From a virus, in the UHGV virus genome UHGV-1351772: a DNA stretch of 64,000 bases; one strand, written 5' to 3'. The notes below the pieces were generated by a model that saw only the letters and a program-made list of their open reading frames with translations, was not told where the DNA came from and did no database searches. Both the position numbers and the translations under genes were made by a program. This document shows, in pieces, positions 7,256 through 63,625 of the stretch (within the stretch, counting starts at the first letter, position 1; each line of letters starts with the position of its first letter).

Positions 7256-8179
7256 ATGACAACCAATGCAGAACCAAGGTTATCGAATCGTTTATACGAT
7301 AAACCCACCGTATTGTCCGTAGTCGCTACGTCCAAGTGTAACCTGGACTGTAGCTTCTGCGGTGGAGCCTATTACATGAATCGTGAAGATTCTCCGCGAG
7401 AGTTTCAACGTGAGCGAATTTTGGAAGCGCTGGAAGCTAATCCAACCATTACCGAAATTCAGTGGACGGGTGGTGAGCCATTACTGGCAACCCGTAAAAT
7501 TGAGGCGTTTGTTGACGAATTAAAAGTGATTCGTCCAGAACTCAAACACCAGTTGTATACCAATGGCTTAAAGATGCGTAAATCGCATCTCCCGTTGCTA
7601 AAACAGTTTGACAATGTCTACGTTAGCATCGATGGGTTTAAGTCGTCTGAGCGCCCGTTTATGCGCTTTATTGACGAAGGCTGTTACGAAGCACTGGAAA
7701 CGATCTACGAGCTGGATAATGTCCAGACTTGGGGTGTCCTGACACGGGACCGTTTAGGGGATAAACGCTGGCACGAAGATATTATTCAGCTGCACAGCGC
7801 GATTTACCATTACGGTTTCCGTGCAATGACGTTACTCTTAGATGCGAAAATGCCAAAACCTTTATCGCCCGACCACGTCATGAACTTTATTTACGGCTAC
7901 TATCAGGTTCAGGACAACATTGAACGACTGAATGTAGTAAATGGTCGTGAATGCGGCTTTACAGTAAGTAAAGTGTTTGAAGAAGGGTGTAACGTTTGCA
8001 GCGAAAGTCTTTGGATTAATGCAGACGGTGGTGAGCACCAACTCCAGAATGCACCTAACGTTCTGGAATCGGGGTGTAACCAACTGGCCTTCTCTATCGG
8101 TGTAGAAGCGTACGAATATATTCGTCGCGTAGTGATGGCAGGGCGTAATAGAGGGGCGGCAAATGAGTCAAGTAAATGA
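7256..8179 (+). CDS. radical SAM enzyme (putative peptide maturase)
   Basis: C-x3-C-x2-C (CNLDCSFC) near the N-terminus, GGEPLL SAM-binding motif, extra C-terminal Cys (CGF...C-x2-C...C) suggesting a twitch/SPASM-like auxiliary cluster. Confidence 0.8.
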   Translation: MTTNAEPRLSNRLYDKPTVLSVVATSKCNLDCSFCGGAYYMNREDSPREFQRERILEALEANPTITEIQWTGGEPLLATRKIEAFVDELKVIRPELKHQLYTNGLKMRKSHLPLLKQFDNVYVSIDGFKSSERPFMRFIDEGCYEALETIYELDNVQTWGVLTRDRLGDKRWHEDIIQLHSAIYHYGFRAMTLLLDAKMPKPLSPDHVMNFIYGYYQVQDNIERLNVVNGRECGFTVSKVFEEGCNVCSESLWINADGGEHQLQNAPNVLESGCNQLAFSIGVEAYEYIRRVVMAGRNRGAANESSK

Positions 8180-9485
8180 ATTCCCTAAGCAGTTAACGTA
8201 TCAGATCGTAACCAACCTTTCGTGTAACCTGGACTGCGAATATTGTTACGAACGTAAGTACCCACGTAACAACAAAGCAGCGGATATTGTTGATTTCTTG
8301 CACGCCTGTTTTGAACGTGATAAAAACGAACCGAATGTTGAAGTTATTATCGACATTATCGGTGGTGAACCGTTCATGCAGCCTAAACTGCTGCTGGCTG
8401 CGTTCGAAACCGCTGAGCAGTTGTGCAAAGAACACAACCGTCCGTTTATGTTTAGTATCTCCACGAACGGGACCTTGTTAGATCGTCCGTTGAACCGTGA
8501 GATTGTAGAACGATGGAAAGACAAACTTTCGGTTGGGGTTTCGATTGACGGCTTACCGGAATCCCATGACCGTTATCGTATCTTCACAACGACACGCCAG
8601 GGTTCTTACGAAGCCGCTGTACGTGGCTATAACTACTTAAAAGAGGTTGGCATTGCAGAACTCGGCGTAAAGGCGACCTTTACGTTAGAAACGCTTCCGT
8701 TCTATGCTGCGGGGATGAAGTCATTAATTGACATTACTGGCGGTGGGACAATTTCTGGAAACGTAACTTTCGAAGACGTTATGCCACGTAGCATGGCGAC
8801 GTCAATCGCTTTACAGATGATGGATGTGATAGATTATTGGGTTGAGAAAGGATTACACACCAACCCACGTAATATCTTATCGCACATCATTCCAGAAGGG
8901 TTGGATTTCGATACGATTTGGGAACCGAACTGGCGTGACCAGTTACTGTATAATGACACCGTACGGTTGAACCCAGAACGTTTACGTCCGTTCTGTGGGA
9001 CGTTAACGCACATGACGTGCTTAGGATTTGACCGTAAGATCTTTGGCTGTAACCGCTTTATGTCAACGGTAACGTCGCGTTCTGCGGTGTTTGAGTTGGT
9101 AGGTCGGGAATTCGTCAGTCTGGACAACGGTAAATTGTTAGAAGAGATTCAAACGCAATATACCAACTACCCAGAGACCTGTTTAGGTTGTCCGATGAAA
9201 CACGCTTGTGGTAGCTGCGCGGCGGCTTCTTACGAGAACGGGGAAGGAACGTTAGAAGACCGTAAAGCGTATCACGCTGAACGACGTCAGTGTGGCTGGA
9301 CGACAGCGAAACTGATGGTGGCGGAATACTGGAAACAGAAGATGGGTACGACGTCAGCAAAAGCGTTCCACGACACGAGTATGTGTTATTGTCCACGCTG
9401 TGTTCGTGAACGTGCCCAAAAGGAAAAATTATTAAGAGAAGCCAAAGATGAAACCAATTCTGATCAACAATATTACGAAGCGTAG
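8163..9485 (+). CDS. radical SAM enzyme with C-terminal SPASM-type domain (putative peptide maturase)
   Basis: CNLDCEYC (C-x3-C-x2-C), GGEPF motif, C-terminal CLGCPMKHACGSC (C-x2-C-x5-C-x2-C) plus further Cys; start overlaps the stop of the preceding rSAM gene. Confidence 0.85.
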   Translation: MSQVNEFPKQLTYQIVTNLSCNLDCEYCYERKYPRNNKAADIVDFLHACFERDKNEPNVEVIIDIIGGEPFMQPKLLLAAFETAEQLCKEHNRPFMFSISTNGTLLDRPLNREIVERWKDKLSVGVSIDGLPESHDRYRIFTTTRQGSYEAAVRGYNYLKEVGIAELGVKATFTLETLPFYAAGMKSLIDITGGGTISGNVTFEDVMPRSMATSIALQMMDVIDYWVEKGLHTNPRNILSHIIPEGLDFDTIWEPNWRDQLLYNDTVRLNPERLRPFCGTLTHMTCLGFDRKIFGCNRFMSTVTSRSAVFELVGREFVSLDNGKLLEEIQTQYTNYPETCLGCPMKHACGSCAAASYENGEGTLEDRKAYHAERRQCGWTTAKLMVAEYWKQKMGTTSAKAFHDTSMCYCPRCVRERAQKEKLLREAKDETNSDQQYYEA

Positions 9486-15031: not shown

Positions 15032-15880
15032 TTAATCTAAGAATCCCGGTAAGACCGAATTAGTTTTAGCTAATTCAATCTTCGACTTTGGACGATCGGT
15101 ACCGTTAAAATGGATTAACAGATTACCGGTCAGGTTAGAACACAACGGGCTGAGCGTCAGCACCAACACACGTGTGAACTTCGTATTTGCGCCTTCGAAA
15201 CCTGCGGTAGGACCATCGTAGATAACCTTAGCACCGTACAGGTTATTAGCAGCGTTCTTAGGTACACTTACCCATTTCTCGTCAACGACGTTATCCAGCT
15301 TAGTAGCTAACTCAGCCAGGTCGACGGTGTCGTTAATGGTAATCGGATCGAGGTAATCTTTTTCTGCGGTGAAGTCAATTGGGTAAGAATAAACTGCAGC
15401 GTTACCTTTCTTAGTGGACGGATACTCTACCAGGTTTTCTAATTGAGTAACAGGTAACAATTTAGCCAGATCAATAGGGTCGCGTAGCGTGAGTGTCACC
15501 TCGCCACACCATTCGTAGGATTTCTCGTTAGCGGTAAGCTGATGGGTTTCACCTTCAACTTTCGCATCAATGATATCCGACGGCAGAATATTTAAATCGT
15601 ATTTTGCGTTGATTGCATTAAGCAAATCTGCAGCGGTTACAACACCGTCGTTACCGAATACCAACTCACCTGTTAGGTATTCGGGCAAATTACGACGATG
15701 ATAAGTCACAGTTAAAGTAGTAGACTCATCGCCTTTGAGTTTAGAAGTCAGAACCACCTGGGTATCAACCCCAGTACCAGTAGGTTCGCCGATATCAACA
15801 TCACTGAAGGTCAATGGCGGAACAATATTGTTTTCAGTGTTGATGAGTTTTAGCAGTTTCTGTTTTGACGTAAGAGACAT
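15032..15880 (-). CDS. hypothetical protein, small-protein paralog family (member 4 of 6, extended)
   Basis: 282 aa; LTFSDVDIG and AADLLNAINAKYDL blocks. Confidence 0.55.
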   Translation of the reverse strand: MSLTSKQKLLKLINTENNIVPPLTFSDVDIGEPTGTGVDTQVVLTSKLKGDESTTLTVTYHRRNLPEYLTGELVFGNDGVVTAADLLNAINAKYDLNILPSDIIDAKVEGETHQLTANEKSYEWCGEVTLTLRDPIDLAKLLPVTQLENLVEYPSTKKGNAAVYSYPIDFTAEKDYLDPITINDTVDLAELATKLDNVVDEKWVSVPKNAANNLYGAKVIYDGPTAGFEGANTKFTRVLVLTLSPLCSNLTGNLLIHFNGTDRPKSKIELAKTNSVLPGFLD

Positions 15881-18918: not shown

Positions 18919-19413
18919 TTAGAGGTGTTTTCCGATAACTTCCGAAACTAATTCGTAAAGGTCATCGTCACTGCACACGTCTACGCTAATTCCGATATCG
19001 ATACTACGACTGCGGAACCCTACTTTGAGCGTTTTACCGAATTCGGTTTGTAGGGCTTTATAGAGTCTATTCTTATCTTCTTTAAAGAGAGGAACAGGTA
19101 GTCTAACAGTGAACTTGTAATGTTCTTTCGAAACAAGTTCGTTAGAATAATTAAAACGTTTAGCCACACGAGTTCCGATAATCTGTGTTATCAGCTTAAA
19201 CATTTCTTCGTCGCTATACGGTGTTGCACCATAACCGATATCAATAGAATTTCTACGGAATCCTGCGCAGAATAATGCACCGAATTGCTCACGGAATTCT
19301 TTGTGTAGAATATCTTTTTCTACGTCCCACAGCCCGTAACCCAAGTCAATCGTGAATTTGTATTTTTCTTTGTCGACTAATTCGTTAGTGTAATCAAGTC
19401 TAGTGAAGTTCAT
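18919..19413 (-). CDS. hypothetical protein with internal tandem duplication
   Basis: AGGAGA RBS before the ATG at 19413 (track start 19464 is GTG inside the upstream hairpin); two homologous halves (YTNELVDKEKYKFT / YSNELVSKEHYKFT). Confidence 0.55.
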   Translation of the reverse strand: MNFTRLDYTNELVDKEKYKFTIDLGYGLWDVEKDILHKEFREQFGALFCAGFRRNSIDIGYGATPYSDEEMFKLITQIIGTRVAKRFNYSNELVSKEHYKFTVRLPVPLFKEDKNRLYKALQTEFGKTLKVGFRSRSIDIGISVDVCSDDDLYELVSEVIGKHL

Positions 19414-19442
19414 GGTATATTCTCCTAAAATGGTTTCGTTAA

Positions 19443-19490
19443 GTGAGAGTAACTGAACTCTCACCTAGGTAATATATATCTGAAAATATT
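19443..19490 (-). promoter_or_regulatory. conserved promoter-like motif with 5' hairpin (copy 1 of 4)
   Basis: Minus-strand reading: AT-rich, CAGATATATATTACCTAGG, then hairpin GTGAGAG/CTCTCAC directly upstream of the RBS of 18919..19413. Confidence 0.5.
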
Positions 19491-19494
19491 TTTA

Positions 19495-19797
19495 TTAAAA
19501 ACCCGCAATAAAACTGCCTAGCGAGACACGCTGTAGGTATTTGGGCTTACGGGCCAGGTAACAGTTCTTAGGATTACCTATTGCCATCTGCGCAACTGCA
19601 CGTTCTAAACGCGGTGCTTCTAAGATGGCACGATAGTTCCCTTCGTAATGCATTAACCACGCACACTCTTCAACGAAACGTTTTGCTTCGCGATAATCTA
19701 ACGTACGAATTAACTTCTTGCCCCGGTATTGTTTTACATCACCGTTTTGACAAAATACAATAGTTTCACGATTCATTGATAATCTCCCAGAATTCAC
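19495..19797 (-). CDS. hypothetical protein
   Basis: 100-aa ORF in a compact minus-strand small-gene array. Confidence 0.45.
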   Translation of the reverse strand: MNSGRLSMNRETIVFCQNGDVKQYRGKKLIRTLDYREAKRFVEECAWLMHYEGNYRAILEAPRLERAVAQMAIGNPKNCYLARKPKYLQRVSLGSFIAGF

Positions 19798-22500: not shown

Positions 22501-22944
22501 TTAAATCATACCTGGGAATTCGAAATCGATTTTATCTAAAAGTTTGTAGTCGTCTTTTAGTTGAAGCATTAGCGTATTCTTAAACAGTTCAAGTGAACCG
22601 ATAAAGTAAGCCGTATAGCAGCTACCACGAACAGAAGAGGAAAGACCCAAGTCTCTTAAACACTGTTTCAAGATTTCATGTTCTTCAGCGGTACCGAAAA
22701 GTTGGAAATTGATAACGGTAATCTGTTTATTAATGATTGCCGATAACCATTCTTTAATTCTTCTCGTGGTTATACGTTCTTTGAAATCACTAGCTTCTGG
22801 CAACCAGGTAATGTGAACAAACGGTGCATCGTAATCCACGAGAACTTTCTGCTGCCAACGTACTTGCATCAAACCACGAATACGATTTGCTAACGTTTCA
22901 GAATCACAAAGTAACATAATGCCGTTGGTAGTATTTGGTTTCAT
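22501..22944 (-). CDS. hypothetical protein
   Basis: 147-aa ORF. Confidence 0.5.
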   Translation of the reverse strand: MKPNTTNGIMLLCDSETLANRIRGLMQVRWQQKVLVDYDAPFVHITWLPEASDFKERITTRRIKEWLSAIINKQITVINFQLFGTAEEHEILKQCLRDLGLSSSVRGSCYTAYFIGSLELFKNTLMLQLKDDYKLLDKIDFEFPGMI

Positions 22945-23792
22945 AATTGTCCTTCCTTCTTAATGTAATCTTCAACCAACTTATCAAACACGATTTTTAT
23001 CTTCTCGCGTTCTTCTTCACCCAATTCACCGGAACAGGTTAGTCCGTTTATCTTCCCATACCGTAACTCCAACACATATTTCAACCGATGACGTAAGGCT
23101 TGATCAAAATGCGTTGGAATATAGATCGGTTCGAAATTGTGCAATAAAATAAAATTGTCTTCGGTGTGTTTAGGGGGTTCGAATTTTACTTTATCTAAGA
23201 TAGTAAGCCAGCGTTGTCTGTCGACTAACCGATCGTCCCAATAAACAGGTTTTGTTTTAGAGGGGGTAAATGTGTTGTAGTTACTGGAATCGGAGATACG
23301 GAAATTTGCTGTGACATAAGTCTTCGTGAGTAACGAGAGAAGACAAATCGTTCCTTCTTCGGAGTAACTTAAACCCTCGTCGAGTATGTCCTTAGCTTTC
23401 TTGAAGTAGTCCTCAATATAGTTTTCAGCAATTGGTTGAATCTCTACTTCTATAGCGCTAATTTGAGGCCCGTCTATCCGTAAAGGAAATTTTAGTTCAC
23501 CAATATATTGCCTATCCGATGTATAAGCACGCGTAACAATAGGGTACGTAACAGGCTTAGCCAAATGACGATATTCACCAACCCTAATGACTGCGGAACG
23601 TCCAAAGTCACCTTTATTCGATTTTGAAAAACCGTAAAGGTCTTTTAGATACTCTAGATACTGACCATCCGTCATTTCATCGGTATTAAATTCACGAATG
23701 TATAGTCGATTAAAAGATCCTTCTGTTTGTTCGTAGTAATAACCAGGGTCCCTATTTGCTAGAATGTGCGGGAGATAATACGGGTGATACAT
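22941..23792 (-). CDS. hypothetical protein
   Basis: 283-aa ORF; AAAGGAGGA RBS upstream of the start. Confidence 0.55.
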   Translation of the reverse strand: MYHPYYLPHILANRDPGYYYEQTEGSFNRLYIREFNTDEMTDGQYLEYLKDLYGFSKSNKGDFGRSAVIRVGEYRHLAKPVTYPIVTRAYTSDRQYIGELKFPLRIDGPQISAIEVEIQPIAENYIEDYFKKAKDILDEGLSYSEEGTICLLSLLTKTYVTANFRISDSSNYNTFTPSKTKPVYWDDRLVDRQRWLTILDKVKFEPPKHTEDNFILLHNFEPIYIPTHFDQALRHRLKYVLELRYGKINGLTCSGELGEEEREKIKIVFDKLVEDYIKKEGQL

Positions 23793-23820
23793 CTAATCCT
23801 CCTTTAGGCTATAACTAATG

Positions 23821-23870
23821 GAGTGAATGTAAATTTCACTCTCTCCTAGGTAATATATATCTGAGAAAAA
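23821..23870 (-). promoter_or_regulatory. conserved promoter-like motif with 5' hairpin (copy 2 of 4)
   Basis: CAGATATATATTACCTAGG on the minus strand followed by hairpin GAGTGAA/TTCACTC; sits between a terminator and the gene start at 23792. Confidence 0.5.
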
Positions 23871-23908
23871 ATATAAAAACCGTAGGATGGACTAAGTCCA
23901 TCCTACGG
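23871..23908 (-). terminator. rho-independent terminator of the tailspike transcript (minus strand)
   Basis: 12-bp stem CCGTAGGATGGA / TCCATCCTACGG followed on the minus strand by a T-run. Confidence 0.7.
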
Positions 23909-23914
23909 TTTAAA

Positions 23915-28337: not shown

Positions 28338-31300
28338 TTATAACTTGGTCTCAATTATCTCCGACAACTCCTTTATTGCCTCAATAAGTAGAGCTATTTG
28401 GGCAGAGTTAGAGACCGTCAAAACGTCCTCACCATTAGCGTCTTTATAAGTAGAAACTGCTTCAGGTAACACTTTTTGTAAGGTCTGCGCTACAACACCA
28501 GCCTCACGATGAACATTAGTGGATTTAAAGTTCTCCTTTTTGTCGTATATTAAACCTGACAATTTCTTTACCTTCTCCAATGCATTAGTTATTGGAGAGA
28601 AATTACTTTTCAGTCGGGCGTCTGATCGTATATAAACGTCGTTAAAGTTACCGTTTCCACCACAAACCCAAGTACCGTCGTTTTGCAAATAAGCATTACC
28701 GTCAGTGCCATTATCAGTACGTGAGTTGTTTATCATGTAAAAGCCAAATTGACTGTTACCTAAACCACCAACAAAATATTTCCTATCAGCATGGTCTTGT
28801 CTTAACAATGCCTGAGCAGAACTAGTTCCTACCTTATTAAGACCAAAAATAACGTTATGGTCTCTCATGCTAATCCAAGAACCTGAGTTGCTGTTAATAG
28901 AATATCTATTTGCATAAACCCAAGTATTGGTTCTTATATCTCCGGTAACGTTGAGAGGTTTATTGCTTTGAACAGCCCCACTCGTAAAGCGTAAAACATG
29001 AGCATTATTGGCGTAAACATCTAGAACACCATCCCCGTTCTGCTTAAGGCCGGTGTCATTATCCCCTAAAACTATAGAGTTCCCGCCTAAAGCATTAGGG
29101 GTTCCAATACCCAATGCCCCATTCAATTGACCGCCAGATAATGGCAACGCCCCAACATCCGCAGCAGTTGGCTTGTTTCTCGTATTGTACACGCGACGCC
29201 AACCTGGTGAGTAAGCATCGCCGTTAAATACGTAGATAAACTCCGCATTAGTGAGTGCGCCGGAGACGCTCGTCGTTGTGGCGGTCGTTATACGGATCGT
29301 GTAGTTGTTTGTGCTATTGCCATTACTAATCACTTCTATAACGGCCCCAGCTAACGGAATAGCCCCACAACCCGTCTCGCTGTGTGGTATGTGCGCACTA
29401 GCGGCATAAGCCCACGCACAACGAGCAACCCACGATCTTGTGGTAAACGCGCCGTTATTTTTCAATAACGTCACTAGCTGTGCTGTAGTTATTGCAGCGC
29501 CATCAGCGCCAGTTTCTAACCAACCACTAGGCGATGCCGGGCAACCTATATCGGCAGGCCCTAACGATATATTTCTAGTGCCGTCAAATGCGATACCGTT
29601 AATGGTACGAGCTGTCTGCAACTTTGTGGCCGTGGCTGCGTTTCCGGTAGTCGACTGATTACCCGTCTGGTTTACACCAGGTAAACTGATGTCTTTAGTA
29701 CCATCAAAAGCCACACCGCCTATATTTCGCGCAGTCTGAAGTTTAGTCGCTGTCGCAGCATTACCTGTCGTATTCTGGTTGCCTTGCTGGTTAACCCCCG
29801 GTAAATTGATATCCCCAGTACCGTCAAACGTAACCCCACCAATTCTGCGAGCGGTTTTCAGTTTCGTCGCGGTAGCGGCGTTGCCGGTAGTATCTTGATT
29901 ACCTGTGGTATTTACGCCAGGAATGCTGTCACGGGCAGTATAAACTTGTGCCCAATCTGACCACGGCGCATCCGCTGTATCACGTCGACTACGAATATAA
30001 ACGGGTGCGTGCGCACCACTCGTCCCCGACCATCCGATTAACAACTCACCTTCACCTAGCGCAGTAGCGCCACCCAAATGCAGTAAGTTACCATAAGCGG
30101 TAGGATAACCGTTATTGTAAACTTCGTACATCTGAATACCAGGCGTACCTTTGTTTGAACCGGTTAGTGCAGTAACCCGACCACGACCCACCAAGGTGTT
30201 GATATTGATGTCAGCAGAACCATCGAATCTCACACCGTTAATATTTCTGGCAGTTTGAAGTTTAGTGGCTGTACCGGCATTACCCGTGGTGTTTTGATTA
30301 CCTTGTTGGTTAACACCCGGGAGGTTAATATCACCACTGCCGTCGAAAGCGACTCCACCAATTCTACGTGCGGTCTTTAATTTCGTTGCGGTTGAAGCAT
30401 TGCCGGTTAACTCGCCTGCTAACCCTTTTGCAAAGGTCTGTTTTTCTGCCCAGGTGTGTGCTGCATTCAATACAGGCATCTGGCGCGGTGTAATCGTACG
30501 ACTACCTTTCTCACCAGCGATACGTACTGCAAAGAATCGATAGTTGGCAGTAGACACCGTACTACGCCAAACCAACATACTCCGGGCTGAGGATGCGCCA
30601 TCTGATGGACCAACCAGAATGCTAACTAGGTTACCGTCAATAACACCCCAATCCATTCCCGTAGGAATGTTTTTCATGGTGTTAAGCGGCGTACAGATTA
30701 ACTCACCTGGTTTAAAGTCATAGGTTTGCCAGTCTAAAGGATCAACATTCGCACGTTCACCGCCGATACCTAATACCAGCGGAAGCGAATACGATGTGAA
30801 AACCTCACGCCAATCGCTCCAAGCGTTACCCGTACGGATACGTTGGAATTTACGACCTTTAGTTTCTACACCCGTACCGTATGTAGTATAATTCTGTTCG
30901 ACCCCTGTACCGTCTAAGCGTAAGGTAACTTCACAAACACCTAATATGGTTTCACCAGAAGAACCGGTAAGTGGGCCATTAGTTGCTTCACCAGTGACAC
31001 TGAAACGTCCCGGTTTAACGAGATCGTTAAAATTGGCTTTAAAGAAAGCACCGTCAGTCTGATAACCAACCTGAATCCAATCTTCCCATTGCGGGTTTGA
31101 TGAATCCCACGTTGCGGTCAAACCACGAACATACATCGTACCACGACGTGTGGTGTATCGTTGCAACCGTCCGAAAAGACCACCTTCCATTACTTCTAGT
31201 ACGCCTTGCGCGCCACCACCTTCTTCAGGGTAATGTCTGCTAAAAACAGCCAGCGAACTGGACGAGTTTCGCCAGTTACCCATATGCTCAGCGCCACCCA

Positions 31301-32897
31301 GAGAGTTCAAGTCTATAGAGGTAGATAACGGACGTACACCAGTAGTTACCATTCTCCACGGTGACCAGGGTCCATTGGCACCATTCCACGCACCTGACAA
31401 CATACGGTTGTACACGTTACCATTACGACAGGTAAAACGTTGCGCACCGCTGTAATTACCGGCTTTATACACTTCCAGATAACCGACCGCACCGTCTTCT
31501 GGGAAGTGTTTTGCCATCGACGCATTGGTTGACGTCGACTTAGCCCACGTTCCTGTGTAATTGGCATCTGGAGCAAATGTGTTAATATCGGCATCCGCAG
31601 GCATTTCACCACGGAAACGCAGATAGGTGTCAGGCGATAGACCGATATTGCGGGCAAACGTTTCTTTATCTGGGATATCAGCGCCGTTAGAGTTTTTCTG
31701 TAACGCGCTATTCGCTTTATCTACAGTGGCTTTTAATCCCAAGAAATTGATGATATCCGCAGTTGTCCCTTTCGCTAACAGGGTTCTGGCTGTTTCTGTA
31801 AAGTCAGTTAATCCGACTTTATTAGCACCGGTGAAATAGGGGAGCTTGTTTGCTGCGGATGTGACTGCGGCAATAGCGGTGAGTAGCGGACTGATAGGTT
31901 GCTTCTGCGCAAGTTTCTCAGTAATCGTAGTCGCGAAGTTAGGGTCATTACCTAACGCCTCGGCTAATTCCGCTAAGGTATCTAACGTTTCAGGTGAAGA
32001 CCCAACCAATTCCGCAATCGCGGCACGCACCCAAGCCGTTGTGGAGATGCTCGTGTCGTTTGAATCTTTCGGGGGTGTTGGTGACGTCGGCTTACCCGTA
32101 AAATTCGGCGAATGTTTGTTAGCCTTTAACTGTAGTTCGTCATTCAACTGCTTAACTGTAGACGGTGTAGCAGCCTCCGTCACGGATTCGCTAGTCAGGG
32201 TATTGTTAAGTTTAACGATACCTTTACCAGTCGTACTAGCGTCGATTAAGCCCTGTGCAGCGATTTTCTCCGCACGCAGTGCAGCTGATTCCGAGCGCGT
32301 AGCTGCGCCTTCTGAGCTTTCTTTATCTTTCGTGACCTGCGCAGCAACCTTTTCCACTGCGCCCTTACTGGCCTCAACTGAAGCTGCGGTATTTGCGATA
32401 CTGGTAGCCGTCTGTTGTACTTGCCCGGCTTTTTGCGTAACCGTTTCTGCTTTCTTAGTTACATCAGCCGCTGCAGCCGTCACCGATTGTTCGCTTGTAG
32501 CGATAGCTTGAGCTTTCTCATTTACCGACTGTAATACAGTATCTACGGCAGTTTTCGCGGCTAAAACTTCAGCGTGTTTTTTGCTAACCTCAGCAGTTTT
32601 AGTGGCAACGGTTCCCGCTTGCTCGCTAACTGTGGAAGCTAACGTGTCAGTTTGTTGCTTCGCTGTTTCTGCTAAGTCTTTTGCTTGTGTGGCTTCTGTT
32701 GCAGACTGTTGCGATTTGGCCGCCGCCGTTTGTGCGTCAGCAACCGCGTTTCTGACGGTGTCAATATCCGCAACAATCTCGCGGACAGGTAACTGATAAT
32801 CCCTTTCGTCTTTCGAAAAAAGTAAAACGCCTTCACCGATATCCCCGGTGTATGGACGTAAATCGTGTAAACGAATTTTCTTTACCGCTTTAGCCAT
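28338..32897 (-). CDS. long tail fibre protein with C-terminal intramolecular-chaperone (peptidase S74-like) domain
   Basis: 1519 aa; repeated TGNAxTATKLxTAR(N/R)I(G/N)GVxFDG units; C-terminal SDARLKSNF motif typical of self-cleaving chaperone domains. Confidence 0.75.
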   Translation of the reverse strand: MAKAVKKIRLHDLRPYTGDIGEGVLLFSKDERDYQLPVREIVADIDTVRNAVADAQTAAAKSQQSATEATQAKDLAETAKQQTDTLASTVSEQAGTVATKTAEVSKKHAEVLAAKTAVDTVLQSVNEKAQAIATSEQSVTAAAADVTKKAETVTQKAGQVQQTATSIANTAASVEASKGAVEKVAAQVTKDKESSEGAATRSESAALRAEKIAAQGLIDASTTGKGIVKLNNTLTSESVTEAATPSTVKQLNDELQLKANKHSPNFTGKPTSPTPPKDSNDTSISTTAWVRAAIAELVGSSPETLDTLAELAEALGNDPNFATTITEKLAQKQPISPLLTAIAAVTSAANKLPYFTGANKVGLTDFTETARTLLAKGTTADIINFLGLKATVDKANSALQKNSNGADIPDKETFARNIGLSPDTYLRFRGEMPADADINTFAPDANYTGTWAKSTSTNASMAKHFPEDGAVGYLEVYKAGNYSGAQRFTCRNGNVYNRMLSGAWNGANGPWSPWRMVTTGVRPLSTSIDLNSLGGAEHMGNWRNSSSSLAVFSRHYPEEGGGAQGVLEVMEGGLFGRLQRYTTRRGTMYVRGLTATWDSSNPQWEDWIQVGYQTDGAFFKANFNDLVKPGRFSVTGEATNGPLTGSSGETILGVCEVTLRLDGTGVEQNYTTYGTGVETKGRKFQRIRTGNAWSDWREVFTSYSLPLVLGIGGERANVDPLDWQTYDFKPGELICTPLNTMKNIPTGMDWGVIDGNLVSILVGPSDGASSARSMLVWRSTVSTANYRFFAVRIAGEKGSRTITPRQMPVLNAAHTWAEKQTFAKGLAGELTGNASTATKLKTARRIGGVAFDGSGDINLPGVNQQGNQNTTGNAGTATKLQTARNINGVRFDGSADININTLVGRGRVTALTGSNKGTPGIQMYEVYNNGYPTAYGNLLHLGGATALGEGELLIGWSGTSGAHAPVYIRSRRDTADAPWSDWAQVYTARDSIPGVNTTGNQDTTGNAATATKLKTARRIGGVTFDGTGDINLPGVNQQGNQNTTGNAATATKLQTARNIGGVAFDGTKDISLPGVNQTGNQSTTGNAATATKLQTARTINGIAFDGTRNISLGPADIGCPASPSGWLETGADGAAITTAQLVTLLKNNGAFTTRSWVARCAWAYAASAHIPHSETGCGAIPLAGAVIEVISNGNSTNNYTIRITTATTTSVSGALTNAEFIYVFNGDAYSPGWRRVYNTRNKPTAADVGALPLSGGQLNGALGIGTPNALGGNSIVLGDNDTGLKQNGDGVLDVYANNAHVLRFTSGAVQSNKPLNVTGDIRTNTWVYANRYSINSNSGSWISMRDHNVIFGLNKVGTSSAQALLRQDHADRKYFVGGLGNSQFGFYMINNSRTDNGTDGNAYLQNDGTWVCGGNGNFNDVYIRSDARLKSNFSPITNALEKVKKLSGLIYDKKENFKSTNVHREAGVVAQTLQKVLPEAVSTYKDANGEDVLTVSNSAQIALLIEAIKELSEIIETKL
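29560..29940 (-). repeat. tandem about 120-nt coding repeats within the fibre gene (three copies)
   Basis: Nucleotide and protein repeats (TATKLQTAR..NG..FDG) read directly. Confidence 0.7.
30180..30410 (-). repeat. second block of the same fibre repeat (two copies)
   Basis: Same repeat unit as 29560..29940, separated by about 240 nt of unique sequence. Confidence 0.65.
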
Positions 32898-33099: not shown

Positions 33100-33660
33100 T
33101 CATGTAGCCGGGTTTTCTTCAACTGAGTCGTCATCTGGAACCTCAAAGGTAAGAACAGCATCATCACCAATACAGAAGATCGCATCATCTTCGTTTGCTA
33201 ATGCTCGTTCTGTTGTATCGAATAACGTTACCATAAACGCATTCATCCACGCAGGAGAATCGTCAGCAACGTTAACAGCAATGGGTTCGTTACCTAAGGT
33301 GATATCTGCAGCACGTAAATCTTCGGGTTGTAAGTTCGTTCCGCAGAATTCATTTACAACACCTAAAATGTCACGAAGGTTGTCTTCAGTACCGTCTAAC
33401 GAAATCAAAATAGGTTCAGACGCTAACACTTCGTCCGCATCCAAACGGTCGTAATAAACAACCACAGAAGCACCATCAGGTTTCCTGATTTTTGTAATCT
33501 CTGTCAGTGTGTTACGACGCGAAGTGGTCGGGGACGGGTTTGCCATAGTGTTGCTAATACGGATTTCGTTTAGAGACAACCGTGAACCGTTATCGTGGTT
33601 GATTAAAGCGACCACCAATTCGGCTGAGGCCAGACTTAAATCAGGTACGTAAGTAGTCAC
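33100..33660 (-). CDS. hypothetical protein, small-protein paralog family (member 6 of 6)
   Basis: Probable GTG start at 33660 after GGGAGG RBS (track start 33693 runs into the terminator hairpin); paralog of 26364..26879. Confidence 0.5.
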   Translation of the reverse strand: MTTYVPDLSLASAELVVALINHDNGSRLSLNEIRISNTMANPSPTTSRRNTLTEITKIRKPDGASVVVYYDRLDADEVLASEPILISLDGTEDNLRDILGVVNEFCGTNLQPEDLRAADITLGNEPIAVNVADDSPAWMNAFMVTLFDTTERALANEDDAIFCIGDDAVLTFEVPDDDSVEENPAT

Positions 33661-33671
33661 TAAAACCTCCC

Positions 33672-33720
33672 AGATCAAAAAAAAATAAAACACCTACCGC
33701 CCATAGAATCGGGCGGTAGG
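33672..33720 (-). terminator. rho-independent terminator (minus strand)
   Basis: Stem CCTACCGCCC / GGGCGGTAGG followed by T9 on the minus strand. Confidence 0.65.
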
Positions 33721-38135: not shown

Positions 38136-38178
38136 TCGAAGAAAAATAAAAGTACCCTCTCTCCTAACGGAGAGAGGG
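38136..38178 (-). terminator. rho-independent terminator (minus strand)
   Basis: Stem CCCTCTCTCC / GGAGAGAGGG with T-run on the minus strand; identical stem recurs at 39202..39225. Confidence 0.65.
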
Positions 38179-38478: not shown

Positions 38479-38515
38479 GTGAGAACTCTCACATAGATGA
38501 AATATATCTTAAAAT
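38479..38515 (-). promoter_or_regulatory. conserved promoter-like motif with 5' hairpin (copy 4 of 4, diverged)
   Basis: AAGATATATTTCATCTATG followed by short hairpin GTGAG/CTCAC on the minus strand, upstream of 38186..38455. Confidence 0.4.
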
Positions 38516-38525
38516 TTTTAAACCG

Positions 38526-38948
38526 TTAACTGAACAAAGCAATGTTAACCGACTTACCAGGTAGCGGGAAATGCTGTAGTTCTATTGACTGAAGTTTCCT
38601 GTCAATAGTCAGTATTTCATCAACGTTGGGCGTAAGACGGAATACGGCGCGTGGTAGCGTGAAAGGTACGTTCGTCGAGCAGTTGTTTAACAGTAACTGA
38701 TCCTGAGAATAGTCAATTTCTACCACCCTCGCAATTACCCAACGTTCGTGAATCTCGCCACCCAGCGGTGCAGTTAGTGCCCGTTGCAAGCGCTGTGAAT
38801 TCGTTTCATCGGTATTAGTGTGGTTTTGGTTCGACATAAGTTTCCCCAAACACGTACGCAGATTCTGTTTCAAGCGTCGGTTTAGCGACACGCCACTTCC
38901 ATGCACCGGTTTCAGGATCTTGCCAGGACAACAAAAGAGAACCCTCAC
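38526..38948 (-). CDS. hypothetical protein (true start possibly 38837)
   Basis: 140-aa ORF overlapping 38815..39132 by 134 nt; an internal ATG at 38837 would cut the overlap to about 23 nt. Confidence 0.4.
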   Translation of the reverse strand: MRVLFCCPGKILKPVHGSGVSLNRRLKQNLRTCLGKLMSNQNHTNTDETNSQRLQRALTAPLGGEIHERWVIARVVEIDYSQDQLLLNNCSTNVPFTLPRAVFRLTPNVDEILTIDRKLQSIELQHFPLPGKSVNIALFS

Positions 38949-39185: not shown

Positions 39186-39225
39186 CGTAAAAATAAATAC
39201 TCCCTCTCTCCGTTTGGAGAGAGGG
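39186..39225 (-). terminator. rho-independent terminator (minus strand)
   Basis: Stem CCCTCTCTCC / GGAGAGAGGG, loop GTTT, T-run on the minus strand. Confidence 0.65.
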
Positions 39226-43367: not shown

Positions 43368-43727
43368 TTAGTGCGTTGCGGTGTTAGTGATAAAACGCAC
43401 ATTCTTCGTGGTGCGTTTAATGGACGTGTTTGCAACGTAGTCCAACGCTGATTCTACGTGAACGGTTACTGAGCAACGACCCTTAACGGAATTAAAACTA
43501 ATCTGGTATTTCAGACGAATCGCATCAGCAACTTTCATCATAATCGGCAAACTTAAACGTTCTGAGTGATCGTTCTTAATAGACGAGATAACAGGTTGTG
43601 AAACTTTCGCAAGCTGGGCAAGTTCACGCTGAGTAATGTCTTTTGTGGTCAAATGACGAATTACGTAAGACAAGTGAAGACCGAATTTACGTTTTGCCAG
43701 AACGATGGAATTGTGATTGTAAGCCAT
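43368..43727 (-). CDS. helix-turn-helix DNA-binding protein (putative transcriptional regulator)
   Basis: HTH-like segment ITQRELAQLAKVSQPVISSI; first gene after promoter-motif copy 3. Confidence 0.5.
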   Translation of the reverse strand: MAYNHNSIVLAKRKFGLHLSYVIRHLTTKDITQRELAQLAKVSQPVISSIKNDHSERLSLPIMMKVADAIRLKYQISFNSVKGRCSVTVHVESALDYVANTSIKRTTKNVRFITNTATH

Positions 43728-43762
43728 TGTAAATACTCCTTTAGGTTAACAAGTCGGTGTAA

Positions 43763-43810
43763 AGAGTTAATCATAACTCTCACCTAAGTAAAATATATCT
43801 GAGAAAAAAT
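43763..43810 (-). promoter_or_regulatory. conserved promoter-like motif with 5' hairpin (copy 3 of 4)
   Basis: CAGATATATTTTACTTAGG on the minus strand then hairpin AGAGTTA/TAACTCT; immediately downstream of the terminator at 43818..43841. Confidence 0.5.
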
Positions 43811-43817
43811 AAAATAT

Positions 43818-43841
43818 AGGTACCACCGTTGGGTGGTACCT
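43818..43841 (-). terminator. rho-independent terminator hairpin (minus strand; T-tract runs into the promoter motif)
   Basis: Stem AGGTACCACC / GGTGGTACCT, loop GTTG, followed by T-rich run on the minus strand. Confidence 0.65.
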
Positions 43842-43847
43842 AAGCGG

Positions 43848-44533: not shown

Positions 44534-45148
44534 TTACAATTCAAAATATGTGGAAATTAAGCTCTCAAGGTTACGTTCTTCGTACACTTCCTTACTCGTA
44601 GGGTAACCGACGGTATGGTATTTCGCTGTAAAAGAAATGGCCTTGTTTGCAACGACGTACCGGTCATCGATACTCACCTTTTCAGGATGCTTGAGGCTGA
44701 GCGTGACGGTACGTATATGGGTCACCTCAAAATCTTTGATGATAACGCGATCTCTGTGTCGTGAGATAGCAAAATTGCTACTGCCCGCCACGAACTCCTC
44801 ATAACCGCCGACCAATTTAAGAGCTGCTAAACATGCAGTATAAGCGGGATATTTATCAGCCAATAGTTGTTCTTTTGTTACAAAGAGTTTATAGTCTTCC
44901 TCATCGCGAAGGTATCTCAGCAATAATTGGGAACGGAATTTCGACAACAGTCTTTCGTACTGCGATTCCCAGAGTTTTCCATTTTCAGTGAAGAGATGAC
45001 CAACGGTATACTTTAATTTCTCACCTTCATAAATCAAAAGCGAATTTTTCGAGACAAAGCCCGCATTCTTTCTATTTTCGCCAATTTCATTTTCAGCAAC
45101 TTCAACTAAAGTGTAGTTGTTAGGGAGTTCAAAGCGCTTAATTTCCAT
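44534..45148 (-). CDS. hypothetical protein
   Basis: 204-aa ORF. Confidence 0.5.
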   Translation of the reverse strand: MEIKRFELPNNYTLVEVAENEIGENRKNAGFVSKNSLLIYEGEKLKYTVGHLFTENGKLWESQYERLLSKFRSQLLLRYLRDEEDYKLFVTKEQLLADKYPAYTACLAALKLVGGYEEFVAGSSNFAISRHRDRVIIKDFEVTHIRTVTLSLKHPEKVSIDDRYVVANKAISFTAKYHTVGYPTSKEVYEERNLESLISTYFEL

Positions 45149-45227
45149 AATTTATCTCTCTTTAAATTGGTGAGTTACCGACTCACTACGGTTGTCACAT
45201 TGATAATATCAATCTGTAATAAAATTT

Positions 45228-45268
45228 AGGGTAAAAAAAAGAAACCCGCCCCTACCGTTAAGTAGGGG
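45228..45268 (-). terminator. rho-independent terminator (minus strand)
   Basis: Stem CCCCTAC / GTAGGGG followed by T8 on the minus strand. Confidence 0.55.
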
Positions 45269-61849: not shown

Positions 61850-63625
61850 TTAACGGCCAATCTTCGCAATGTCTTCTTCGGTTGCTTGGATCAACTCGTT
61901 GAGTTTTGGATTACGTACCATCACCAGTTGGGTGTTCGTCTTCATATACGGATTGAGAATACCCGATTTGAACGGTGATGATTTCGGAATGTAATACACG
62001 TTACCACATTCCAGATGAGATGCAGAGGCATGTTTTGTCCGGTCATTAAGGTTAACCGTCTTACCGCCCTTGCTGTTACGTTTTGATTCTGTTTCTGTCT
62101 GGCTGATAGCATGGGTTGAAACCCCCAGCACCATAGACTCGGTAGAAGCGTTGAAATAACTTACACCGCCATTGCCGGTAATGTTGCGTAATACCAGGCT
62201 GGTTACAATGTCTTTATTCAACGCACTGCGTATCATGTTCGCACAAGACTCCGGTGTTCGATTTTCCGTTTGTCCCAAGTGGAAACGAATCGCTGCGATG
62301 GTAGGCGTAAAGCCACGCTCACCCAATAACAGGTAATCTGTTACGGTCAGACGTTTTCCATACATTGACGGAATATCACCTTGTTTCGTAAGGCGCGTTC
62401 TCACCATCAACTTCGTCGCGTACCAGAAGAAATCAAACATATCCATATCGTCCGGGATATCGGGATCTGACATCATTAACTCGCCACGGAATGTTGAGTT
62501 AACGTAACGTTCACACTCCGTATAGTGCTTCGTCATGCTGTGTGCCAGTTCAATATCGGACGGTTTAAGTCCAACAATACTTCTCCCCAAAATCTCCCGC
62601 CAAATTGCGGAGGAATTCAGGTTTACAACATCGTCCTCCATTGCAAGTTCGTTAATCGCGGTAAACAACGGCGGTAAAGGAACAACGTTGCCGCTTTTAA
62701 TCGCTTGCTTTCCGCAATAATAGTGCGCTGCTTTAAAGAATGCAGAAATCGCCACGAGTAATAAGTGCTCGTTTTGATCCCATCCCGCTTTATCGAGATT
62801 TGGTAAAGCCTCTGCAGGAACCGTCACTACGTACATAATCGACCGATTATGTTTAGGCTCACCTGAACTGATTACTACTTTTTTATCGAGATCGATTTCA
62901 GGTACTTTGAATGCAGGATATATCTCCACATCCACGCCAGTATAACGTTTGATGGCTTCCTTAAATCCATAACGTCCGAATAGCCAGTACATTAACGGCT
63001 TTTCGTCCGTGTCAGGATGTGTGGCGTTTTTGGCTTTAAACAAATTGTTTGTTCCGGGTAAGAACAACTCTTCTTTCTTCCCATTCACTAAAATCCGTAC
63101 CGGGTGCTTACAGAATTTTAATGACGCTTTACGTTTAAAGTCAAAATTAACAAACACCCCGCCGTGCTCACGACAGATACCCGGCTGATGAATAACAGGT
63201 GCAACATGATACGTTGTTCCGTAATAGTTCATCAACCCACCACGACGAATGAAAGGCAAGTTAATCGGTCTTGAGATTGGTCTTGAGTCTCCAGGAATAC
63301 GGAACGACGACATGACCATATACGCATCGGTATTCGCGATAGACATCACCCCACGACGCTTATCCATCCTGCTGCTCTCTGAACGAGACAGCTTATAGAT
63401 AAAAGTTTCGAACGGCGACATTAAACGAACACCCAACACGGCCAAGCCTTCAGGAACACGAGGGTTCTCTACAGGATGGTAATCTAGCTCACGTTTCAAG
63501 ATACGATGTACACGATCGTGAATACCATCTTTGGCTTGTGTATAACCGACTCCTTCCGCAATCGCACGGTTAAAGGGTACTATTTTACCACTCTCTTTAA
63601 GCTTTTTGATTGCATCTTTAAACAC
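61850..63625 (-). CDS. large hypothetical protein
   Basis: 591-aa ORF; no Walker or other motif recognised. Confidence 0.55.
   Translation of the reverse strand: MFKDAIKKLKESGKIVPFNRAIAEGVGYTQAKDGIHDRVHRILKRELDYHPVENPRVPEGLAVLGVRLMSPFETFIYKLSRSESSRMDKRRGVMSIANTDAYMVMSSFRIPGDSRPISRPINLPFIRRGGLMNYYGTTYHVAPVIHQPGICREHGGVFVNFDFKRKASLKFCKHPVRILVNGKKEELFLPGTNNLFKAKNATHPDTDEKPLMYWLFGRYGFKEAIKRYTGVDVEIYPAFKVPEIDLDKKVVISSGEPKHNRSIMYVVTVPAEALPNLDKAGWDQNEHLLLVAISAFFKAAHYYCGKQAIKSGNVVPLPPLFTAINELAMEDDVVNLNSSAIWREILGRSIVGLKPSDIELAHSMTKHYTECERYVNSTFRGELMMSDPDIPDDMDMFDFFWYATKLMVRTRLTKQGDIPSMYGKRLTVTDYLLLGERGFTPTIAAIRFHLGQTENRTPESCANMIRSALNKDIVTSLVLRNITGNGGVSYFNASTESMVLGVSTHAISQTETESKRNSKGGKTVNLNDRTKHASASHLECGNVYYIPKSSPFKSGILNPYMKTNTQLVMVRNPKLNELIQATEEDIAKIGR

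Follow-up and report, generated by a model that had tools for sequence, protein, structure and literature searches.

The 64-kb stretch of the viral genome UHGV-1351772 analysed here (hereafter the window) carries four copies of a promoter-like motif, each followed by an inverted repeat and all read on the minus strand. The 18-mer AGATATATWTTACYTAGG is present in its exact form at 19464-19481 (copy 1), 23845-23862 (copy 2) and 43783-43800 (copy 3), and with three mismatches at 38492-38509 (copy 4), and a search allowing up to three mismatches revealed no additional match on either strand of the window. Chance would supply 0.19 matches, and four were reached in 0 of 100 shuffles. A covariance model that combines the motif with its hairpin and derives from related phages retrieved exactly these four sites and none other at E<=1, and looser searches of the window with the AT-rich core recovered no further intergenic copies of this form. 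All four copies are intergenic, share the orientation of the genes downstream and precede the start codons of these genes by 36-55 nucleotides (nt). The four copies listed in a preliminary description of the sequence are therefore confirmed at their positions on the minus strand, and the motif search which that description had proposed as a check placed all of them, within the window, between open reading frames (ORFs) and none inside coding sequence.

The promoter of copy 1 (19463..19501) is composed of an AT-rich tract (19482-19501), the 13-mer AGATATATATTAC (19469-19481) and the spacer CTAGGT (19463-19468), and is followed by a predicted transcription start at G 19462; it scores 64.3 bits with a position weight matrix (PWM) and 51.7 bits with the covariance model. 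From the predicted +1 onwards, the hairpin (19445..19462) pairs GAGAGT with ACTCTC around a loop of 6 nt (-8.4 kcal/mol), potential pairing reaching 19465/19442, and what remains of the 5′UTR (untranslated region; 19411..19444) leads through AGGAG (19422-19426) to the ATG (19411-19413) of an ORF of 164 amino acids (aa; 18919-19413). The program-listed ORF 18919-19464 begins at a GTG (19462-19464) inside the promoter spacer/start, the plausible start being the ATG behind AGGAG. In copy 2, the promoter (23844..23882) includes the 13-mer at 23850-23862 and the spacer CTAGGA, with a predicted start at G 23843, and the hairpin (23820..23843) is formed by GAGTGAA/TTCACTC (23835-23841 with 23821-23827) around a 7-nt loop, plus the pair G23843-C23820. 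Copy 3 (43782..43820) has the 13-mer AGATATATTTTAC (43788-43800), the spacer TTAGGT and a predicted start at G 43781, from which the hairpin (43762..43781) extends with the arms GAGAGTTA/TAACTCTT, a 4-nt loop and 8 base pairs (bp) including G+1·U; the remainder of its 5′UTR (43725..43761) consists of the linker CCGACTTGTTAACCTAAAGGAG and ends with the ATG (43725-43727) of a gene for a helix-turn-helix (HTH) DNA-binding protein (43368-43727). Two of these three strong copies, 2 and 3, lie directly behind intrinsic terminator-like hairpins with a T-run on the same strand, one with a 16-bp stem at 23877..23911, which would close the transcription unit preceding copy 2, and the other at 43817..43842. 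The diverged copy 4 (38491..38529; AGATATATTTCAT-CTATGT, predicted start G 38490) is weak, scoring 28 bits with the PWM and 19.5 bits (E 0.024) with the covariance model; it is devoid of a Shine-Dalgarno sequence, and its short inverted repeat GTGAG/CTCAC (38479..38492) provides a hairpin of 3 bp downstream of the predicted start, or 5 bp when two upstream bases are counted. The GTGAGAG/CTCTCAC-like arms that had been ascribed to the motif as a whole thus hold for copies 1 and 4 only, copies 2 and 3 having other paired arms; since the arms differ among the four copies with the pairing retained, they covary rather than being conserved in sequence.

The gene content of the window points to the kind of phage in which the motif resides. 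The 905-aa product of ORF 56696-59413 is a portal-like protein with ~73% identity to its counterparts in phiEaH2 and Asesino (Erwinia) and SPN3US (Salmonella), the 591-aa product of ORF 61850..63625 on the minus strand is homologous to PHIKZ123, one of the subunits that make up the non-virion RNA polymerase (nvRNAP) of phiKZ (PDB 7OGP_E, E 9e-18), and several RNA polymerase (RNAP) beta-like genes are annotated in the complete genome of SPN3US. Judging from these three lines of evidence, the window is part of an SPN3US/phiEaH2-like, phiKZ-related jumbo phage that would transcribe its genome with its own multisubunit polymerases. In phiKZ-type phages, one such multisubunit RNAP is packaged in the virion and transcribes the early genes (PMC7598289, PMC13282480). 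The operons downstream of the motif encode mostly orphan proteins, along with the HTH protein and a DNA methyltransferase, a content typical of early genes; PHROG scans of the downstream genes mostly returned no match, and the genes after copies 1 and 2 have neither an SPN3US nor a PHROG match.

The motif itself is shared with related jumbo phages. When 8 kb around copies 1 and 2 were compared by megablast with 50,697 phage genomes, the sole matches were ~40-60 bp of the motif, at several places in each of the genomes of Erwinia (Huxley, Machina, Parshik) and Salmonella jumbo phages. The exact 18-mer occurs at 55 IMG/VR loci, and 47 of the 53 unique instances reside in jumbo-phage contigs (including SPN3US, phiEaH2 and Huxley), where it recurs several times per genome in ~20 related contigs and has in common the extended context ...ATTTC-AGATATATATTAC-YTAGG-TGAGAG; the remaining six instances, in unrelated contigs, are chance matches without this context. 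The IMG/VR contigs 3300045988_113438 and 3300029126_000001 carry identical copies. Scanning the SPN3US genome with the PWM yielded 11 sites scoring at least 10 bits, all on the gene strand and upstream of genes, as opposed to none in the shuffled genome; altogether, SPN3US contains six exact and ~15 variant sites. Accordingly, we distinguish sub-class A, the exact form represented by copies 1-3, from sub-class B, the variant AGATAGATATTAT. Conservation spans ~40 bp, a pattern resembling that of the early promoters of the phiKZ family rather than -35/-10 hexamers.

Indeed, the motif agrees with these early promoters in both sequence and spacing. The mapped early promoter of AR9 is AAATATATATTAT-(6N)-G+1, and transcription in phiKZ and phiR1-37 likewise starts 6 nt past the element (PMC5312081). 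For 201phi2-1, the early consensus is TATATTACDWHDGTG, in full TTTRARR_BTATATTACDWHDGTG (PMC7058600), and the same paper gives TATATTAC for phiKZ and TTTCARRYAKATATTATYWAAGTGWA for OBP/N1M2. In the first 50 kb of phiKZ, TATATTAC-(6N)-G is found at 8 of 9 sites. The arrangement in the window, AGATATATATTAC followed by 6 nt and a G, corresponds to the early promoters of AR9, phiKZ and 201phi2-1, and the predicted +1 is a G at all 21 SPN3US sites examined and at all five window sites (copies 1-4 and a further one described below). The likeness extends to the T/A-rich region further upstream, to the intergenic location before operons of small orphan genes and to the presence in the phage of split beta/beta′ RNAPs. 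By contrast, the invariant spacer and initial sequence YTAGGT-GAGAG and, in the strong sub-class, the coupling to a covarying +1 hairpin set the SPN3US-clade version apart from the phiKZ promoters, which are mostly without a hairpin. The near-identity of the 13-mer, together with a spacer of the same 6 nt before an invariant G, marks the motif as the form that the early promoter of the phiKZ family takes in the SPN3US clade, presumably read by the virion RNAP, and applying the AR9/phiKZ/201phi2-1 spacing to AGATATATATTAC-CTAGGT-G places the predicted starts at G 19462, 23843, 43781 and 38490. We infer the reading polymerase, the exact start, the early timing and the function of the hairpin from sequence comparison.

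The hairpin was characterized in the 47 unique sub-class-A instances from related jumbo phages. All but one of them (46/47) have a contiguous stem of at least 5 bp that opens within the GGTGAG region, with stems of 5-12 bp (mostly 6-9) and variable loops of 3 to more than 8 nt. Over the 36 nt that follow the motif, the minimum free energy (MFE) averages -8.5 kcal/mol, compared with -3.8 for shuffled sequences and -1.4 for a segment 45 nt further downstream (Wilcoxon p ~5e-13 and 3e-9, respectively). When folding begins at the predicted +1, a reference point that depends on the inferred start site, the stem opens at nt 1-3 in 43 of 46 instances and closes at ~+21. As a control, the 14-mer CAGATATATATTAC was considered at 99 places in unrelated viral contigs where it occurs by chance; the MFE averages -2.5 there, and nine of these places have a hairpin comparably close to the 5′ end. 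The arms come in complementary versions, including AGAGTTA/TAACTCT, AGATTAC/GTAATCT, AGCGTTA/TAACGCT, AGCATTGA/TCAATGCT, ATAGA/TCTAT, AGGAT/ATCCT, GAGTGAA/TTCACTC and GAATGAC/GTTATTC, the last one from further jumbo variants. Chimeric arms, in which the 5′ half of one promoter is combined with the 3′ half of a promoter with differing arms, fold less stably than the native ones (-3.3 versus -5.9 kcal/mol, p 2e-6; p 0.0017 with one representative for each of 20 arm classes). In the covariance-model alignment, 90.2% of cells are paired, against 76.4% in shuffles, two-sided changes affect five of the eight pairs, and the covariation score of 0.278 drops to no more than 0.061 once the partners are slid by 1-3 columns. 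G·U pairs account for 55 of 355 pairs, and in 40 of 47 instances the fold of the sense strand is more stable than that of its complement (p 7e-8). The hairpin is real and is under selection for pairing on the sense strand; the G·U pairs together with the strand preference exclude both a hairpin in the template strand and a palindromic double-stranded protein site. RNAalifold predicted no structure for a MAFFT alignment of fixed 40-nt windows, because the 3′ arms, lying behind loops of unequal length, did not line up with one another. With the OBP/N1M2-type consensus, five loci were retrieved from viral contigs, three of them with a hairpin near the 5′ end, too few for inference at the level of the clade.

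The 5′UTR has a median length of 52 nt among the related instances, and CGAC occurs at +15..+80 in 19 of 46. The leader after the hairpin often contains (A)ATCGACYATTAAYCTAAAGGAG in relatives (contigs L001, L004, L012, L036 and others), the corresponding stretch at copy 3 being CCGACTTGTTAACCTAAAGGAG (43736-43757, minus strand), and such a conserved post-hairpin leader may act as a translation enhancer.

The two sub-classes differ in their association with the hairpin. In SPN3US, sub-class B, AGATAGATATTAT-(6N)-G, is represented by ~15 sites, all on the gene strand and with a G at the predicted start in 15 of 15; these sites are more numerous than those of sub-class A but weaker, and most are without a +1 hairpin. 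The mean folding energy is -3.7 for sub-class B, versus -2.3 for shuffles, and -7.1 for sub-class A, versus -2.0. Some of the sub-class-B sites precede RNAP beta genes of SPN3US, 28969 lying before gp232 and 15614 before gp244/gp243; 23810, 72486 and 184044 are further members. Copy 4 is the positional counterpart of the SPN3US sub-class-B site 100815 and precedes a gp154 homologue. A fifth, weaker candidate promoter of sub-class B is located at 45197..45235 on the minus strand, upstream of ORF 44534-45148, with the 13-mer at 45203-45215 in the arrangement AGATTGATATTAT-CAATGT-G45196, and is the positional counterpart of SPN3US site 92540. At this fifth site (45170-45235, minus strand), a hairpin GTGAGTCGGTAACTCAC is found at +11 and is kept in the 92540 region of SPN3US as gtgagtcggttaaaactcac; a terminator-like hairpin lies just upstream, at 45249-45268. 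The PHIKZ123 homologue (61850-63625) adjoins the portal-like gene, as in SPN3US, and within the window no sub-class-A promoter precedes it.

Taken together, the copies are likely to be early promoters that are read by an injected virion polymerase and give rise to transcripts starting with a 5′ stem-loop, which probably stabilizes the message. Under this scenario, a multisubunit RNAP packaged in the virion and injected with the DNA would read each copy, recognizing the AT/T-rich tract and the 13-mer AGATATATATTAC and initiating at the invariant G seven bases past the 13-mer. In sub-class A (copies 1-3), the first ~20 nt of the RNA would fold into a near-blunt or blunt stem-loop of 6-9 bp beginning at, or no more than 2 nt from, the 5′ end, to be followed by a leader of ~30 nt, a strong Shine-Dalgarno sequence and the first gene of a mostly orphan early operon. 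The hairpin would shield the 5′ triphosphate end from RppH/RNase E and thereby slow 5′-end-dependent decay, and it may also assist the nascent RNA in clearing the polymerase. The 5′ hairpin of Escherichia coli ompA and the stem-loop at the start of the T7 phi10 transcript are 5′-terminal stabilizing stem-loops of this kind: in both, a short hairpin located at the 5′ end or a few nucleotides away from it precedes the leader and a strong ribosome-binding site, with selection on pairing and not on sequence, and in T7 phi10 the phage-polymerase promoter, 5′ stem-loop, leader and Shine-Dalgarno sequence come in the same order as here. The differences are that the polymerase considered here is a putative multisubunit virion enzyme rather than the host or T7 RNAP and that the function of the hairpin is predicted. 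That the hairpin stabilizes early mRNA is thus probable, by analogy. The phage-specific promoter class with a structured 5′ end envisaged in the preliminary description is supported by the promoter match and by the +1 hairpin with its compensatory changes, although the RNase III and regulator alternatives that it had offered fare poorly, as discussed below.

Several considerations weigh against this scenario. The stabilizing role is proposed by analogy with E. coli 5′-terminal stem-loops, and the start site is extrapolated from AR9, phiKZ and 201phi2-1; the literature searched yielded no transcript 5′ ends, timing data or polymerase assays for SPN3US-like phages. Having been fitted to the structure of the model, the alignment used for covariation leans towards it, and many of the hairpin instances are orthologues of one another and do not count as independent events. 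As for the strand test, its outcome would be the same for a hairpin in RNA and for one in the non-template DNA strand. Furthermore, in 16 of 47 instances, including copy 1, pairing involves 2-3 bases upstream of +1 (GGT with ACC/ACT/ATT), an extension that would not be anticipated if the element acted purely as RNA from a fixed start site; such extended pairing may reflect either variable start sites or a contribution at the DNA level. Finally, the early promoters of phiKZ (9 sites in the first 50 kb) and the sub-class-B promoters are mostly without a hairpin, so that the latter appears unnecessary for promoter function as such.

Beyond generic stabilization, the +1 hairpin could serve SPN3US-like nucleus-forming phages as a signal in cis that is dedicated to a class of immediate-early transcripts, a proposal that we regard as rather unlikely. 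Release or clearance of the nascent RNA by the sigma-less virion polymerase could depend on the hairpin, or a phage RNA-binding factor could recognize it and handle the messages or export them from the early infection vesicle. Were this the case, the hairpin-bearing and hairpin-less sub-classes would represent two separately regulated early regulons.

A role of the inverted repeat as DNA, in the form of a non-template-strand hairpin or a cruciform that aids the virion polymerase in melting or escape, loosely as in bacteriophage N4, seems quite improbable. The N4 virion RNAP is a single-subunit enzyme whose recognition signal, upstream of the start, is a DNA hairpin in the template strand with a stem of 5-7 bp and a 3-nt loop. 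Both systems combine a virion-injected polymerase, early genes and a promoter-associated inverted repeat, but in N4 the hairpin lies upstream of the start, in the template strand and with a fixed 3-nt loop, whereas the repeat described here is downstream of the recognition element and has variable loops and G·U pairs on the sense strand. An N4-type hairpin promoter was accordingly rejected, given the location of the repeat at or after +1, its loop lengths of 3 to more than 8 nt and the advantage of the sense over the antisense strand in 40 of 47 instances. A more general function in DNA would be compatible with the strand test, provided that the non-template strand is involved, with the fixed position of the hairpin directly after the spacer, with the upstream extension of pairing in 16 of 47 instances and with the reported importance of the region downstream of the start for the phiKZ nvRNAP (PMC7598289). 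The numerous G·U pairs (G·T in DNA, where they are weak), the free variation of arm sequences and loop lengths, and the absence of the repeat from the related phiKZ and sub-class-B promoters argue against such a function. Binding of the DNA or the hairpin by the HTH protein encoded after copy 3, or by another sequence-specific phage regulator, to shut off early transcription appears highly improbable: an HTH gene does follow copy 3 as well as its SPN3US counterpart, and copies 1 and 2 contain the 8-bp palindrome ACCTAGGT, but half of the related instances carry ACTTAGGT, which breaks the palindrome, and the invariant part of the motif coincides with the AR9/phiKZ promoter element. Moreover, the arms and loops change with pairing retained, the opposite of what is expected of a sequence-specific operator, so that the regulator-binding site suggested in the preliminary description does not fit the data. 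Typical RNase III substrates span about two helical turns, and the stems of 5-12 bp, mostly 6-9, fall far below this size, too short for the RNase III element suggested alongside. A promoter-proximal attenuator or terminator, which, jointly with RNase III processing, we consider more doubtful still, would be in line with the classification of the copy 2 hairpin as terminator-like in a simple scan and with the short 5′UTR-derived RNAs produced by premature termination in 201phi2-1 (PMC11512511); however, the 6 nt past the stem contain 38% T, against a background of 30%, and at least five T in 0 of 43 instances. Least credible of all is the reading of the motif as a host sigma-70 promoter of the ordinary type whose -10 region is AT-rich. 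Weak 9/12 matches, TTAATA-16-TATATT and TTAACG-17-TATATT, overlap copies 1 and 4, but copies 2 and 3 have no such match, regional matches occur at chance frequency, the ~40-bp conservation fits phiKZ-family early promoters and not -35/-10 hexamers, and phiKZ-type infections are insensitive to rifampicin (PMC13282480).

An additional function, compatible with that of a promoter, is that the promoter-hairpin-leader unit also serves in recombination, as a cassette through which orphan early genes are gained and lost, in the manner of the PeSL cassettes of T4-type phages, promoter/stem-loop units that mediate orphan-gene shuffling (PMC2839356, PMC4122927). We regard this possibility as tentative and somewhat unlikely. 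When the window is compared with the related contig L044, the unit at copy 2 stands out with 86% identity over 99 nt amid flanks that are otherwise dissimilar or rearranged, and a 283-aa orphan ORF (22941-23792, minus strand) is absent from L044, with the breakpoint exactly at the 3′ edge of the cassette. In L044, the gene that adjoins the cassette is homologous to the next one in the window (22501-22944; 80% aa identity). The lack of SPN3US or PHROG matches for the genes after copies 1 and 2 points in the same direction, as does the finding that the upstream flank alone is common to 19 instance pairs and the downstream flank alone to three, in an all-against-all comparison that is confounded by the faster divergence of early genes. 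Such divergence could itself explain the asymmetry, and the HTH gene is still homologous (39% identity); the indel is bounded by one cassette, not two, and circular or recombinant products are invisible from sequence. The resemblance to PeSL lies in the repeated ~100-bp composite of terminator, early promoter, stem-loop and Shine-Dalgarno sequence, in its location before orphan genes in variable regions and in the single gene indel at the cassette edge. PeSL, however, have a sigma-70-type promoter, with the stem-loop within or upstream of it acting as a terminator, whereas here the promoter is inferred to be specific to a phage polymerase, no U-tract accompanies the +1 hairpin and a distinct terminator lies upstream. 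Membership in PeSL was rejected, the sigma-70 matches being at chance level and missing at copies 2 and 3, and the comparison is one of analogy only.

The promoter thus appears to be of a known kind, its coupling to a +1 hairpin being apparently undescribed in the accessible literature. In the jumbo-phage transcription literature searched, no mention was found of a hairpin at early transcript starts, and literature searches identified no promoter studies of SPN3US or Erwinia phages; full-text searches with 12-13-mer motif strings returned no phage paper, although the motif could still exist only as a figure logo, for instance, in the AR9 genome paper. At issue is the way in which the virion polymerases of jumbo phages, sigma-less enzymes with split multisubunit architecture, locate their promoters; we know of no virion RNAP (vRNAP) that has been characterized in vitro. 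The SPN3US clade offers a long, nearly invariant promoter (~40 bp, with fixed spacer and initial transcribed sequence) for vRNAP biochemistry, as well as a natural contrast, within the same genomes, between a strong hairpin-bearing and a hairpin-less sub-class, which allows the need for 5′ protection or a 5′ signal in early jumbo-phage messages to be tested. The motif could further be used to annotate early operons in SPN3US-, phiEaH2- and Asesino-like genomes and in metagenomic contigs, and to provide orthogonal expression parts for engineering these phages of Salmonella, Erwinia and E. coli.

Other features of the window include two near-identical terminator-like hairpins on the minus strand, at 39202-39225 and 38155-38178, of the form CCCTCTCTCC-NNNN-GGAGAGAGGG with a T-rich tail, which suggests a conserved terminator motif as reported in phiKZ and 201phi2-1. 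An Rfam 15 scan of the whole window detected no family at the gathering score, and a tRNA scan was likewise empty. Among the protein-coding genes, 28338-32897 (minus strand) encodes a tail fibre of 1519 aa with a T4-like distal long-tail-fibre domain, 15032-15880 and 33100-33693 (both minus strand) encode paralogous virion structural proteins (phrog_1037/2935), and 8163-9485 (plus strand) encodes a radical SAM protein.

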